Shown here one piece after another: positions 14,574-30,224 of a DNA stretch of 64,000 nt. This stretch comes from Patescibacteria group bacterium (lineage in GTDB: Bacteria > Patescibacteriota > Microgenomatia > UBA12405): positions 5,357 through 69,356 of the forward strand of contig WARW01000022.1 of assembly GCA_013387215.1 (NCBI GenBank), in the 5' to 3' direction. The translations under genes and the position numbers were made by a program. The notes beneath the pieces are model-generated. The model made no database searches, was not told the DNA's origin, and saw only the letters and a list, made by a program, of their open reading frames with translations. Position 1 is the first letter of the stretch, and every line of letters begins with the position of its first letter.

Positions 14574-16442
14574 ATGGCTTTGACTAAACCTCAAAAGAAA
14601 TTTATTTTAAATAATTACAAAGTCTTAACTATTAAAGAGTTAAGCGATAAATTGAGAATAAAAGAAACAGATGTTGGTGAATATTTAAGACAAAATAAAA
14701 AGAAACCATTAGTTTCGGTAGATGAATTAAAAAATAATTCTGCTTTAAGAAATGAGAGGGAAAAAACTATTGAGTTGAGTGATGAAATAAAGACTAAAAA
14801 AGAAAACATTGGAATTATTAAAATATTAAAAGAAAATTGGAAATTCCTTTTGTGTGTATCTTTGGGTATTCTTGTTTTATATTTCAATGCGCTTGGTGGC
14901 GACTTTGTTTCTGATGATTATGCATCCATAAGTCAGAATCCTAATGTTGGAAATATTAATGTTATGTTTGCTGGTGGAAATACAGCTGTTTTGACTAACT
15001 ATTTTATTAATATGTTGTTTGGAAGCACGGTTCCAATTGCTTACCATGTGGTCAGTGTTCTTTTGTTTATTACTTTTGTGTGGGTTGCTTTTGTGGCAAT
15101 TATGCTGGTCTTTAATGAAGTGTGGCTATCAAGAATCATGATTTTATTATTTGCTGTACTTCCGGTTCATGTTGAATCAGTGAGTTGGATTTCGGGAAGA
15201 ATATATTTGTTAATTTCTTTATGGGTAATGTTGGGATTTATTTCTTTTTTGTATTTTTTAAGAAATAATAATTGGAAATATTTATTGTCGATGATTGTTT
15301 TTTTTACTTTAGGGTTTGTTACAGATAAACCTAGACCATTTGCTTTGTTTTTGATTATTGGATTATATTTAATTTACAAGAAAGTAAATTTGAAACAATT
15401 TAAAATATTCAGACATTGGCCTGTTTTAATCGGAATGATTATTATTGCTGGTCTTATTGCTTGGCCGAATGTGATGACAAGAATTAATTCAGTTAATTCC
15501 GGCTATAACAGCAGCGGCAGTATTTTTTATAATCCATTTTTTCAATATCCAACTGCAATGGCTAAATATCTTCAGCTATTGTTTATTCCAATGGATTTAA
15601 CTTTGTATCATACGATGTATACAATACCTGTTTGGCTTAATTGGTTTATTTTGTTGACATATATAACCGCTGTAATTTATTTTTATTTCAAAGACAAAAG
15701 AATATTCTTTGCTTTAGTTTTTATCTTTGCGGGTACTGCACCATCAATGGCTCCAGTAAAAGTTAGTTGGTTAGTTGCTGAAAGATATGTGTTTTTAGGA
15801 AGTTTGGGTTTTTGTTTATTTTTAGCGTTATGTTTTGAAAGAATTAGAAAGAAGAATTTATATGTTTCAGTAATACTTTTGGCTGTATTAATGTCTTTTT
15901 ATAGCATAAGAACTTTTATGAGAAACATAGATTGGCAAACAAATCATAACCTGTGGGTTAATACTGTTCAGGTTTCTCCAAATAGCCATAATGCTTGGAA
16001 TAATATTGGTGATGATTATGACAAACTTAAACAATACGATAATGCAATAAAAGGTTTTACTCAATCAACTGTGGTTAAGCCTGATTATGCAGATGCATAT
16101 CATAATCGAGCAAATATTTTTTATAAAACAGGTCAGCTTGAATTGGCAAGAGATAGTTATAATACTGCTTTAAGATATTCTCCTACTTTATTCCAAACAT
16201 ATTTTAGTTTAGTTCAAATCGATATGATGCAAAAAAGATATGACTTGGCTTTTGAACATGCACAAGCAGTAGTGAAAATTCAACCTAATATTGCTCAATC
16301 ACATTATGTTTTTGGTGTTGTTTTGGCGCAGGTTGGACAGTTAGATGGTGCGGTTAAGGAGTTAACATATGCAACTCAAATTGATCCAACTTTTAAACCG
16401 GCGTCTGATTTGTTGAAAAATATAAAATCCCAATTAAAATGA
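14574..16442 (+). CDS. TMTC-like GT-C glycosyltransferase (DUF1736-type membrane domain plus C-terminal TPR repeats), candidate protein O-glycosyltransferase
   Basis: It has a K/E-rich N-terminal about 95 aa, then a membrane domain with GGDFVSDDY (DD motif) and LPVHVESVSWISGR (the HP.H.E.V.WI.gR motif of TMTC/DUF1736). Three to four TPR repeats follow C-terminally (AWNNIGDDY..., AYHNRANIFYKTGQ..., the 34-aa periodicity). Confidence 0.7.
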   Translation: MALTKPQKKFILNNYKVLTIKELSDKLRIKETDVGEYLRQNKKKPLVSVDELKNNSALRNEREKTIELSDEIKTKKENIGIIKILKENWKFLLCVSLGILVLYFNALGGDFVSDDYASISQNPNVGNINVMFAGGNTAVLTNYFINMLFGSTVPIAYHVVSVLLFITFVWVAFVAIMLVFNEVWLSRIMILLFAVLPVHVESVSWISGRIYLLISLWVMLGFISFLYFLRNNNWKYLLSMIVFFTLGFVTDKPRPFALFLIIGLYLIYKKVNLKQFKIFRHWPVLIGMIIIAGLIAWPNVMTRINSVNSGYNSSGSIFYNPFFQYPTAMAKYLQLLFIPMDLTLYHTMYTIPVWLNWFILLTYITAVIYFYFKDKRIFFALVFIFAGTAPSMAPVKVSWLVAERYVFLGSLGFCLFLALCFERIRKKNLYVSVILLAVLMSFYSIRTFMRNIDWQTNHNLWVNTVQVSPNSHNAWNNIGDDYDKLKQYDNAIKGFTQSTVVKPDYADAYHNRANIFYKTGQLELARDSYNTALRYSPTLFQTYFSLVQIDMMQKRYDLAFEHAQAVVKIQPNIAQSHYVFGVVLAQVGQLDGAVKELTYATQIDPTFKPASDLLKNIKSQLK

Positions 16443-28736: not shown

Positions 28737-30224
28737 TTAAGAAAAGTCCTTTAATTTTTGAATATATTTAATTCCATAATTGGCCAAGAATTTTATATCG
28801 TAGATTGATCTTATGGATAATATTTTTCTTATAATAAATTCTGGATTAATAATACCTTTGAATAGACTTTGAACTAAATTAAATTGTTCTTGTGAAGTTA
28901 AAGATGTTTTAATAATCGGTTGCCGCATGTCATAATCATCCCAATCAGTGGTAAGAAGCAGATTATTGTCTTCACAATATTTAAAAAGCGGGGTGCCAGG
29001 ATATGGAATTACGATAGTGGCTTGCATACTATCGGCTAGACCTTTTTTAAAAATTTGTCTGGCTCTGTTTAATGTTTTTTCGATATCTTTTCTGGATTCC
29101 CAAGGATAGCCAATCATGATGGTAATGTGTGGTTCAAGGTGGGCATTTTTTACAAGCGTAAGAGTGTTGACTGCGTTTTTAACTAATTCGTTTTTGTTAA
29201 TTAAATCAAGAGTTTTTTGATTAGAAGACTCTAATCCATATAAAATAAATCTAAATCCAGCTTTTGACATTAGATTGTATTGTTCTTGATTAAGTGCACC
29301 AAAACGCATATTACAGCCTATTTTTACTTTTTTATTTAATCCTCTTTTAATTAATTCATCGCAAAGTTCTTTAAGCCAGGGACCGACTGGTAATGTGCCA
29401 GAATCATCAAATATTTCTTTTACATTAAAATTATTGACAAGGTTTTCAATCTCAGCGAGAGTATGTTTAACAGAAAAAGATCGAAAAGACTGTCCTGGAA
29501 AAATTGTAGTCCAAGAACAAAATGTACATTTACCCCACCAACAATCTCTTCCGGACATAATATAGGCACCAGGTTTATATTTGTAATTAGTATTGTTATA
29601 GGCGTAAAGATGCCACTTAGTTAGTTTTCGATCAATGATAGGCAGAACATCAAGATTGTGATGTTTTAATGAAAATTTACCAGAATTACAAATTTTATTT
29701 TTATCTCGATACCAAAAACCTGGTGCTAGTGGTTTTTTATTGTATAAATGATCAACTAAATTAGCCAACATAAAATCATAATCGCCACCTGTGAGTATGT
29801 AATCAACTGAAGAATATTTTAATGACTCTTCTGGCAGGGCGGTGACATGATCACCCATTAAAACTATTACGGGTTGAGATTTTTTAGAAAAATTAGCTTT
29901 AATATCTTTTATAATTTGCCAATGTTTTTTAACGACTGGAGTTTTTGTTTCTAAAACAATTATTTTAGGATTTTTATTTACTAATCTTTTAAGCCAAACA
30001 TTATATGAAATTTTTTCAGCAATGGCATCATCCCAAAATATTTTATAACCTTTTTTTTGAAGATATGTTGCAGCATATGCAGGAATAACTGGAAAAATTA
30101 CATTACCAGTGTTGGTCCATTGAAATTGGCGATTTTGAGTTAAAAAAGGTGTTCCTTTAGAGGAATCTAGTGGTGGATATGAAATAGATATTAATATTTT
30201 TTTTGTTGTCAATTTAGCCTCCAA
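28737..30224 (-). CDS. B12-binding domain radical SAM protein (class B), fourth paralog with a variant Cx4Cx2C cluster motif
   Basis: The N-terminal B12-type fold pattern is ILISISYPP...PAYAATYLQKKGY. SGRDCWWGKCTFCSW reads as C-x4-C-x2-C. Downstream it resembles the other three paralogs. Confidence 0.7.
   Translation of the reverse strand: MEAKLTTKKILISISYPPLDSSKGTPFLTQNRQFQWTNTGNVIFPVIPAYAATYLQKKGYKIFWDDAIAEKISYNVWLKRLVNKNPKIIVLETKTPVVKKHWQIIKDIKANFSKKSQPVIVLMGDHVTALPEESLKYSSVDYILTGGDYDFMLANLVDHLYNKKPLAPGFWYRDKNKICNSGKFSLKHHNLDVLPIIDRKLTKWHLYAYNNTNYKYKPGAYIMSGRDCWWGKCTFCSWTTIFPGQSFRSFSVKHTLAEIENLVNNFNVKEIFDDSGTLPVGPWLKELCDELIKRGLNKKVKIGCNMRFGALNQEQYNLMSKAGFRFILYGLESSNQKTLDLINKNELVKNAVNTLTLVKNAHLEPHITIMIGYPWESRKDIEKTLNRARQIFKKGLADSMQATIVIPYPGTPLFKYCEDNNLLLTTDWDDYDMRQPIIKTSLTSQEQFNLVQSLFKGIINPEFIIRKILSIRSIYDIKFLANYGIKYIQKLKDFS

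Follow-up and report, generated by a model that had tools for sequence, protein, structure and literature searches.

Class-B-type radical SAM proteins R1 to R4 in a surface-glycan locus of a Patescibacteria group bacterium and the conservation of their glycosyltransferase neighbours

Introduction

In a 2026 review of the class-B radical S-adenosylmethionine (SAM) family, which is very large, 83,589 accessions were analysed and fell into over 100 network groups, the largest of which are unexplored (PMC12931638). Members with a sugar substrate include GenK and GenD1, which set the precedent for C-methylation of sugars by class-B enzymes (PMC4039129, PMC4340712), and HpnJ, which has been proposed to contract the ring of a lipid-linked glucosamine to give a cyclitol ether and whose partner HpnI is a family 2 glycosyltransferase (GT2) acting on a lipid (PMC13459092). 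A different route to unusual sugars is the yersiniose pathway, where YerE and YerF act on exactly the product of the 3-dehydrase E1, this product being the acceptor of YerE (PMC9306805). The present work concerns four class-B-type radical SAM proteins, designated R1 to R4, whose genes lie among glycosyltransferase and sugar-tailoring genes in a 64-kb stretch of DNA from a Patescibacteria group bacterium (contig WARW01000022.1), the whole of which is referred to here as the window.

It is considered probable (roughly 0.6) that R1 to R4 tailor a cell-surface glycan by radical chemistry, and that they do so as parts of at least three separate, horizontally mobile modules and not as one unit. The first-pass annotation was aware of no description of the arrangement, and the searchable literature agrees with this: no publication was found describing class-B radical SAM enzymes as parts of surface-polysaccharide or glycosylation loci, a 2026 review of the family mentions no polysaccharide or glycan substrates (PMC12931638), and the radical SAM-rich clusters reported in a paper on Elusimicrobia and in another on methanogen viruses belong to other contexts. 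The multi-radical-SAM glycan arrangement is widespread in public metagenome-assembled genomes (MAGs) and is thus under-described rather than rare.

Four class-B-type radical SAM proteins

R1 (16439..17923, + strand, 494 aa), R2 (17903..19483, − strand, 526 aa), R3 (19529..20977, + strand, 482 aa) and R4 (28737..30224, − strand, 495 aa, with a TTG start) were all found as open reading frames where the first-pass annotation had placed them. Each possesses the radical SAM domain PF04055 (E-values of 4e-25, 9e-22, 6e-24 and 3e-14, respectively) and the three cysteines of a [4Fe-4S] cluster motif, which has the CxxxCxxC spacing in R1 (CPGHCLYC), R2 (CPSTCTFC) and R3 (CPYNCVFC) and a Cx4Cx2C spacing in the more divergent R4 (CWWGKCTFC). 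R1 to R3 also have the B12-binding domain PF02310 (E-values of 9e-22, 4e-20 and 2e-18) and a GEGE motif. The class-B architecture proposed for all four therefore holds for R1 to R3 by Pfam and for R4 by homology and structural model, R4 itself being without a match to the B12-binding domain; on their sequences, the four are regarded as class-B-architecture proteins with a predicted use of cobalamin. No transmembrane (TM) segments are predicted in any of them. Their pairwise identity is just 25-31% (BLASTP), so that the earlier description of them as paralogues is apt if deep paralogues within one superfamily are meant, and is not apt for close ones. Recent tandem duplication is ruled out by the same values.

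The stop codon of a gene for a GT-C-fold membrane glycosyltransferase with C-terminal tetratricopeptide (TPR) repeats (14574..16442, + strand) is joined to the start of R1 by an ATGA overlap at 16439-16442, and the coupling previously suggested for these two genes is thereby confirmed at the junction. The genes of R1 and R2 are convergent and overlap by 21 bp. R2 is inverted and, again as noted in the earlier annotation, diverges from R3 across a gap of 45 bp (19484-19528). A promoter and terminator scan from 13.4 to 31.4 kb was uninformative for this gap, yielding 103 promoter-like sites versus 90 ± 11 in shuffled sequence, which is no enrichment, and four terminators versus the eight expected from shuffles.

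The count of four radical SAM genes at the locus falls short by one, as there is also a SPASM/twitch-type gene (8995..9825, + strand, 276 aa, CTRKCRYC) with both the PF04055 and SPASM domains in Pfam. It adjoins a UDP-GlcNAc 2-epimerase gene. SPASM radical SAM genes are also present within R2/R1 clusters of two of the related loci described below, L029 (7915-8970) and L017 (2289-3353), their likeness to 8995-9825 being one of type.

Conserved gene order in related loci

Gene order was compared in 58 genome loci around relatives of R1, together with three loci obtained from exact-protein look-ups, all of which were probed with every protein of the window (locus numbers carry the prefix L). R1 is the most widely conserved of the four proteins, with 3551 homologues at E<1e-10, the closest of these (50-71% identity) being found in Shapiro-, Woese- and Gottesmanbacteria. 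In loci of the candidate phyla radiation (CPR; Woese- and Shapirobacteria), R1 stays with the GT-C/TPR gene, with a gene for a CofD/YvcK-like protein (13560..14552, + strand; Pfam CofD, and 148 bits to the NCBIfam YvcK-related model against a cutoff of 196) and with an ATP-binding cassette (ABC)-2 exporter. Orthologues of the CofD/YvcK-like protein have 62-65% identity in L001, L003, L004 and L008, while those of the UDP-GlcNAc 2-epimerase and the ATPase and permease of the exporter (9822..12463, − strand, by Pfam) have 64-80% identity in L001, L003, L004, L005 and L024. A number of loci whose gene content is typical of CPR and whose R1 relatives have 50-63% identity (L004, L008, L012, L024 and others) are labelled as 'uncultured Gammaproteobacteria/Pseudomonadales'; these are probably mislabelled binned MAGs.

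More widely, a second partner becomes apparent. The GT4 glycosyltransferase (25552..26862, − strand; Pfam Glycos_transf_1) accompanies R1 and R2 across phyla, its orthologue lying near R1 in many of them, with identities of 40-53% in L001, L004, L005, L008, L009, L012, L013, L024, L026, L027, L029, L031 and L064. The R2-R1-R3 layout is kept in Omnitrophota, Planctomycetia, Firestonebacteria and one deltaproteobacterial MAG, usually with the GT4 gene just before R2. In these non-CPR phyla R2 orthologues (49-57%) lie approximately 3 kb upstream of R1 orthologues (41-45%), following directly after the GT4 orthologue in L027 and L029, and R3 orthologues (54-56%) are found immediately downstream of R1 orthologues in L017, L018, L027 and L029. 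Pfam neighbours in the R2-R1-R3 loci comprise UDP-GlcNAc 2-epimerase, carbamoyltransferase, SPASM radical SAM protein, short-chain dehydrogenase/reductase (SDR), GT1 and GDP-mannose dehydratase. A scan of metagenome contigs with R3 gave three remote relatives only (30%).

R4 keeps different company. It is flanked directly upstream by a GT2 gene (30214..31245, − strand, overlapping by 11 bp) whose product has C-terminal TM helices (TM 235-319) and directly downstream by another (27719..28735, − strand) with two such helices (TM 276-322), both assigned by Pfam, and beside these lies a class-I SAM methyltransferase gene (26795..27718, + strand; Pfam). The order GT2-R4-GT2 persists in CPR as well as non-CPR loci (45-84% identity), often with the methyltransferase included. 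Orthologues of the downstream GT2 (47-71%) adjoin R4 orthologues in L004, L005, L008, L022, L024, L038 and L064, those of the upstream GT2 (44-82%) lie near the R4 orthologue in L005, L022, L024 and L064 (directly adjacent in L064), and in L022 and L038 the R4 block has a methyltransferase orthologue (45%) nearby.

The closest sister genome (L064) is 70-90% identical over the block from 37174 to 27719, which includes R4, with its R1 and GT4 orthologues reaching only 51-53%. The cassette of R2, R3, the thiamine diphosphate (ThDP) enzyme and E1 was not seen in the 21-kb stretch around R4 in that genome, where other radical SAM genes occupy its place. Judged from these sequences, the contrast is that expected of a backbone that is conserved and a tailoring cassette that can be exchanged, and the sharp change in conservation at the R4 block suggests that the tailoring region has undergone either cassette exchange or diversifying selection.

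Two points raised by the first-pass annotation come out differently in this comparison. The arrangement of four enzymes is not unusual, being common in metagenome-derived genomes: when the 43 R1-anchored loci of at least 12 kb are considered, at least two class-B-like genes are present in 32, at least three in 21 and at least four in 11, with a maximum of seven. Nor do the three contiguous genes behave as one dedicated module coupled to the GT-C gene, since synteny separates R1 (with GT-C/TPR and GT4), R3 (with a dideoxyhexose operon) and R4 (with its two GT2s), and the R2/R3/ThDP/E1 cassette is absent from the sister stretch. The case in which homologues never co-localise with glycosylation genes, which the annotation had also considered, is not what was found, as co-location is kept in related and unrelated genomes alike.

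The R3 operon

R3 heads an operon in which it is followed, after a gap of 15 bp, by genes for a ThDP-dependent enzyme, a short SDR and an E1-type dehydrase, the latter genes overlapping one another; sugar-nucleotide tailoring enzymes, as previously stated, do indeed stand beside the radical SAM genes. The ThDP enzyme (20993..22720, + strand, 575 aa) is of the acetolactate synthase/YerE type, with the Pfam domains TPP_enzyme_N, _M and _C, and remains under every NCBIfam acetolactate synthase cutoff (434 versus 538 bits); by its domains and context it is a candidate YerE-like enzyme. The short SDR (22708..23412, + strand, 234 aa; Pfam Epimerase, E-value 3e-15) is assigned to the operon because it lies between the ThDP and E1 genes and its stop and start codons overlap with theirs, and is a candidate for a YerF-like side-chain or 4-keto reductase. 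The third product (23397..24533, + strand, 378 aa) is a DegT-family, pyridoxamine phosphate-dependent nucleoside diphosphate (NDP)-4-keto-6-deoxyhexose 3-dehydrase of the E1 type. Its best match in the PDB is 3BCX, the CDP-6-deoxy-L-threo-D-glycero-4-hexulose-3-dehydrase (E-value 2e-87), and alignment to this protein shows that the E1 signature is kept, both in the histidine replacing the lysine that binds pyridoxal phosphate (SFYPAHHMT, against SFYPAHHIT in 3BCX, with 3BB8 being the H220K variant) and in the cysteines of the [2Fe-2S] cluster (EDCCD and DCVCx8C). With 380 bits against a cutoff of 423 for NCBIfam RfbH, it is a close relative of this enzyme and not an equivalog.

Because the ThDP enzyme, the SDR and the E1-type enzyme with its histidine and cysteine signature follow R3 so tightly, the operon looks like a pathway for a yersiniose-type branched 3,6-dideoxyhexose to which a radical SAM enzyme has been added. 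A candidate for the first dideoxyhexose step lies elsewhere in the window, namely an SDR of the NDP-hexose 4,6-dehydratase/epimerase type (2464..3399, − strand, by Pfam), which is under the cutoffs of the NCBIfam models for LegB and for dTDP-glucose and CDP-glucose 4,6-dehydratases. In the Omnitrophota locus L026 its orthologue (41%) immediately precedes the ThDP and E1 genes, the ThDP orthologue there having 38% identity. The gene order in this locus is SDR (2464-like)-ThDP-E1-R3-like-GT4-R2...R1, which ties the dideoxyhexose genes to the trio of R1 to R3.

R4 and its family

Residues 41-477 of R4 align with residues 16-453 of R1 (BLASTP, E-value 1e-16), and its N-terminal domain aligns with the B12-binding domains of both R1 and R3. 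Approximately half of its close orthologues carry a PF02310 match, as do the intein-containing members of the family (E-values of 1e-8 to 1e-10), and hidden Markov models (HMMs) of the cobalamin families HpnJ, BchE, BzaD and the ladderane type align with R4 from about residue 42 on. The AlphaFold model of R4, for which 34 orthologues were used (pLDDT 84, pTM 0.88), has a Rossmann-like domain followed by a barrel, and its full-length matches in a fold search are AprD4, OxsB, MgmA/QCMT, TsrM and TokK, among which are OxsB and TsrM, the two enzymes that the first-pass annotation had proposed for structural comparison. On the alignments and the model together, the N-terminal domain of R4 can be described as a divergent B12-type Rossmann domain.

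The Cx4Cx2C spacing that had been singled out in R4 is confirmed and is a trait of its family, CWWGKCTFC being invariant in 34 orthologues and kept down to 45% identity. R4 has 6407 homologues at E<1e-10, and the best 120 of these 6407 all have at least 64% identity. Among representatives of its clade at 50% identity, the spacing between the first and second cysteines is x3, x4, x7, x9 or roughly x17-20, with more distant relatives being canonical. Relatives with unusual loops between these cysteines or with lost cysteines are P0247, P0256, P0263, P0267 and P0273, along with P0254-P0260, P0274 and P0281. Some full-length close relatives (35-41% identity) lack each of the three cluster cysteines, and such paralogues, by their sequences, are probably catalytically dead.

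Inteins (Hint/Intein_splicing, mostly with a LAGLIDADG homing endonuclease) are inserted at the [4Fe-4S] loop in P0242, P0243, P0245, P0248, P0249 and P0269, and in those with both flanks the host sequence picks up again at about query residue 230-235. In P0231 (68% identity to R4) and P0325 (29%) there is a C-terminal fusion to a class-I SAM methyltransferase domain. High conservation in Microgenomates, a variable cluster loop, inteins at the cluster motif and paralogues lacking the cysteines make this family of interest to radical SAM enzymology.

The surrounding glycan locus

The window has a G+C content of about 30% and is packed with genes, nearly all of which, where matched by Pfam, encode glycosyltransferases, sugar-tailoring enzymes, methyltransferases or export functions, so that the identification of the region as a surface-glycan locus applies to all 64 kb. 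There are approximately 15 GT-C/YfhO-type polytopic membrane proteins and 17 GT2 or GT4 genes, in addition to class-I methyltransferases, the UDP-GlcNAc 2-epimerase, the ABC-2 exporter, a Wzx-like flippase, an acyltransferase and a split transketolase. Scans of the window for tRNAs and Rfam families gave no result.

The product of 14574-16442 has a GT-C fold, C-terminal TPR repeats and an acidic DD pair right after the first TM helix (TM1), an architecture that is TMTC-like. At E<0.01 it has no Pfam match to TMTC DUF1736, PMT or PMT_2, and only some of its orthologues carry PF13231. Residues 1-75 (14574-14800) form a helical, lysine-rich cytoplasmic extension ahead of TM1 that is confidently modelled and is missing or shorter in most orthologues (approximately 565-590 aa). 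Some 14 polytopic GT-C/PMT_2/YfhO/GT87-like proteins are densely arrayed at 33935-50283, 51044-53323 and 58057-63999, those with no Pfam match including 42315-43622, 58057-59727 and 61133-62869, and such an array implies many distinct extracytoplasmic glycosyl transfers.

Adjoining the ABC-2 exporter is a gene (6055-8931, − strand) whose product of 958 aa joins a class-I methyltransferase to a GT4-like domain and a GT2. It is kept at 55-56% identity in L001 and L004, there without the methyltransferase part, and resembles the polymerising and terminating enzymes of ABC-transporter-dependent O-antigen pathways. Near the start of the window is a split transketolase-like pair (362-1572, − strand), with the N-terminal and pyrimidine-binding halves as separate genes, the latter short (362-859, 165 aa). 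Beyond it, within 1569-3399 (− strand), lie a methyltransferase gene and then the 4,6-dehydratase-type SDR gene, and together these may represent a second sugar pathway with C2-branching or ketol transfer.

Proposed mechanism

The scheme proposed here starts from the observed architecture, motifs, gene coupling and conserved synteny; its substrates, its choice between methyl transfer and rearrangement and its use of cobalamin are predictions. In each of R1 to R4, an N-terminal cobalamin-type Rossmann domain would be followed by a [4Fe-4S]/SAM barrel in which a 5′-deoxyadenosyl radical activates C-H bonds of sugars. A 4,6-dehydratase and the E1-type 3-dehydrase would generate an NDP-4-keto-3,6-dideoxyhexose, the YerE-like ThDP enzyme would put an acyl branch on its C-4 and the short SDR would reduce this branch. 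R3 would act on the nucleotide-sugar by hydrogen abstraction, most likely with methylcobalamin donating its methyl group to an unactivated carbon, either of the sugar or of the branch. R1 and R2 would work with the GT4 enzyme, modifying the sugar that is installed by the GT4 and GT-C/TPR transferases, and in CPR the GT-C/TPR transferase and ABC-2 exporter would be further partners to which R1 is coupled. R4, in the fashion of HpnI and HpnJ, may modify a lipid-linked (polyprenyl-phosphate) sugar made by the flanking membrane-anchored GT2s, after which its transfer outside the cell would be carried out by GT-C enzymes. Cobalamin could serve as the methyl donor, as for GenK and GenD1, or as an aid to rearrangement, for which ring contraction of the HpnJ/Cds type is the precedent (PMC13459092).

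Several points weigh against this scheme. The best NCBIfam scores are 190 bits for R1 (Sden_1168/PhpK, cutoff 575), 197 for R2 (BchE, cutoff 481), 138 for R3 (ladderane type, cutoff 360) and 134 for R4 (HpnJ, cutoff 577), and none of the four reaches the cutoff of any curated class-B model compared (HpnJ, BchE, HpnR, PhpK/Sden_1168, KedN5, BzaD, MgmA/QCMT, TsrM and the ladderane radical SAM protein), meaning that function is not transferable. Methylating and non-methylating class-B enzymes are inseparable by sequence or structure, and a Rossmann-like domain is also found in AprD4 and ArsL, neither of which binds cobalamin (PMC12931638). R4 has no PF02310 match at E<0.01 in Pfam and has TGGDYD in place of GEGE; its flanking GT2s find generic GT2s in the PDB, and their assignment to the polyprenyl-phosphate glycosyltransferases is a prediction from topology. 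Neither a nucleotidyltransferase nor an E3 reductase was found in the window, and the link of R3 with E1 and the ThDP enzyme recurs in one further locus only (L026), through an R3-like gene of 40% identity. There is no recognisable gene for cobalamin uptake or salvage within the 64 kb. CPR genomes are not known to make cobalamin. The C-methylation or epimerisation that the first-pass annotation had favoured as the likely chemistry is not established, given that the best-scoring families include non-methylating ones (BchE, HpnJ and ladderane) and that AprD4, which is not a cobalamin binder, heads the matches by structure and by PDB sequence. Membership of the HpnJ, BchE, PhpK or AprD4 families is ruled out by scores far under the cutoffs.

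Alternative explanations

AprD4 being the top solved-structure match, the main rival is that R1 to R4 are cobalamin-independent enzymes of its kind, carrying out 1,2-diol dehydration or rearrangement of a sugar followed by reduction by an SDR (as by AprD3), and giving deoxygenated sugars, not methylated ones. The matches concerned, which also count against the favoured scheme, are to AprD4 (6FD2) as the top PDB sequence match of R1 (E-value 9e-17) and R3 (1e-17), second behind 9CCB/QCMT for R4, and as the top fold match of the R4 model (E-value 9e-20, TM-score 0.69/0.75). An enzyme of this type would lift the problem of cobalamin supply in a CPR cell, the substrate of AprD4 is an aminoglycoside sugar, SDR genes lie beside radical SAM genes in the window and in L029 and L064, and AprD4-like proteins are intermixed in the B12-radical SAM networks (PMC12931638). 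It is nonetheless judged unlikely, as the AprD4 model (NF033070) gives 41-87 bits against a cutoff of 500 and aligns with the barrel only (R1 174-433, R4 232-446), whereas the HMMs of true cobalamin families (Sden_1168/PhpK, BchE, HpnR, HpnJ, BzaD and ladderane) run through the N-terminal domain of all four proteins. The strong PF02310 matches of R1 to R3 (E-values of 1e-18 to 1e-22) with their GEGE motif argue in the same direction, and OxsB, MgmA, TsrM and TokK follow closely behind AprD4 in the fold search with R4. Unlikely too is a modification of the lipid part and not of the sugar, whereby a polyprenyl carrier or lipoglycan anchor would be methylated, cyclised or cross-linked in the manner of GrsA/B, Gmm, HpnP/R or the ladderane enzymes. 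Lipids are the substrates of many class-B enzymes, characterised or proposed (PMC13459092), membrane enzymes using lipid-linked donors abound in the locus, all four proteins match HpnJ and HpnR, and the best curated match of R3 is named 'lipid biosynthesis B12-binding/radical SAM protein' (138 bits). Against this, all such scores are far under their cutoffs, R3 shares its operon with NDP-sugar enzymes that are soluble, neither the window nor the related loci examined contain a gene for isoprenoid or fatty-acid biosynthesis, and R1 to R4 are without predicted TM segments.

PMT/TMTC-type GT-C enzymes glycosylate proteins, and TPR domains bind peptides, from which it could be supposed that the GT-C/TPR protein is a protein O-glycosyltransferase whose secreted or S-layer target is also methylated or cross-linked by the radical SAM enzymes, in a manner resembling the ribosomally synthesised and post-translationally modified peptides (RiPPs). 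Some GT-C/TPR orthologues are indeed named 'protein O-mannosyl-transferase' by JGI, and R2 scores 174 bits with the RiPP enzyme ApyD and 137 with a RiPP C-methyltransferase model, both of which R1 also matches. These scores are under the cutoffs, however, neither a precursor-peptide gene nor a protease or RiPP recognition element is evident, and in every phylum examined it is glycosyltransferases and sugar enzymes that are conserved as neighbours, leaving a peptide target improbable. Least credible of all is that numerous radical SAM genes merely happen to fall within a large glycan island. The families are very large (3551 and 6407 matches at E<1e-10), and huge phages and other anaerobes are rich in radical SAM genes as well (PMC9723712); but R1 with GT-C/TPR, R1 with GT4, GT4 with R2, R1 with R3 and GT2-R4-GT2 remain adjacent across phyla at 40-55% protein identity, and coding regions overlap, as at the ATGA junction. 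Chance co-location is rejected on account of this conserved adjacency.

Wider implications

The recurrence of modules of an enzyme with a glycosyltransferase in many uncultured phyla points to unstudied radical sugar chemistry on microbial surfaces. Should the enzymes act on glycans, radical C-C bond and rearrangement chemistry would join the biosynthesis of envelope polysaccharides, helping to explain the surface chemistry of CPR bacteria, which mediates their episymbiotic life, and tying that surface to an external cofactor. More speculatively, a radical glycan-tailoring toolkit might be shared horizontally among CPR, Omnitrophota, Planctomycetota, Verrucomicrobiota and DPANN-like archaea, with three to seven class-B enzymes per locus building sugar units new to characterised surface polymers. 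Such units could be, for example, hexoses with a radical-installed C-alkyl group atop a ThDP-derived branch, or carbocyclic (cyclitol-like) units formed from lipid-linked sugars by the Cx4Cx2C family of R4. Since CPR cells are not known to make cobalamin themselves, the surface glycan and, through it, attachment to a host would in that event depend on B12 from the host or community. The locus and its relatives offer a testable entry, with operons that pair single radical SAM enzymes with E1/YerE-like steps or with particular glycosyltransferases.

Comparison with known systems

With GenK and GenD1 of gentamicin biosynthesis, Fms7 and MoeK5, which are cobalamin-dependent C-methyltransferases of natural-product sugars (PMC4039129, PMC4340712, PMC12931638), R1 to R4 have in common the two-domain class-B architecture, a sugar substrate (proposed in the present case) and neighbours from the sugar aminotransferase/dehydratase-family and glycosyltransferase genes. 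The likeness is one of architecture and context. Those enzymes belong to antibiotic clusters of actinomycetes, whereas R1 to R4 occur several together in a locus for an envelope glycan that also encodes an ABC-2 exporter and numerous GT-C proteins. The HpnI/HpnK/HpnJ system of the hopanoid side-chain pathway compares with R4, for which HpnJ is the best curated match, and shares with it GT2 neighbours with membrane-anchored products and the proposed logic of modifying a sugar while it is attached to lipid; calditol synthase Cds is analogous to HpnJ in this respect. R4 differs in its score (134 bits versus a cutoff of 577) and its Cx4Cx2C motif, and in a locus without hopanoid genes, where no HpnK-like deacetylase was identified. 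AprD4 and AprD3 of apramycin biosynthesis, a 1,2-diol dehydratase and a reductase, provide the best solved-structure match, and AprD4 itself has a sugar substrate and a partner reductase. Unlike R1 to R3, whose N-terminal domains match B12-binding models strongly, AprD4 binds no cobalamin.

The genes at 20993-24533, with E1, an acetolactate synthase/YerE-type ThDP enzyme and an SDR, resemble the pathways to yersiniose A (3-deoxygenation by E1/E3, carboligation by YerE and reduction by YerF), erwiniose and caryophyllose. The yersiniose A pathway has an E3, which was not found in the window, as was also the case for a nucleotidyltransferase, and a class-B radical SAM enzyme such as the one heading the R3 operon is not known from any pathway of this kind. 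Finally, the GT-C/TPR protein has in common with TMTC1-4 and PMT the GT-C fold, the DD pair after TM1 and, at its C-terminus, the TPR repeats. It differs from them in having no TMTC-specific, PMT or PMT_2 match, in being bacterial and in its translational coupling to a radical SAM gene.

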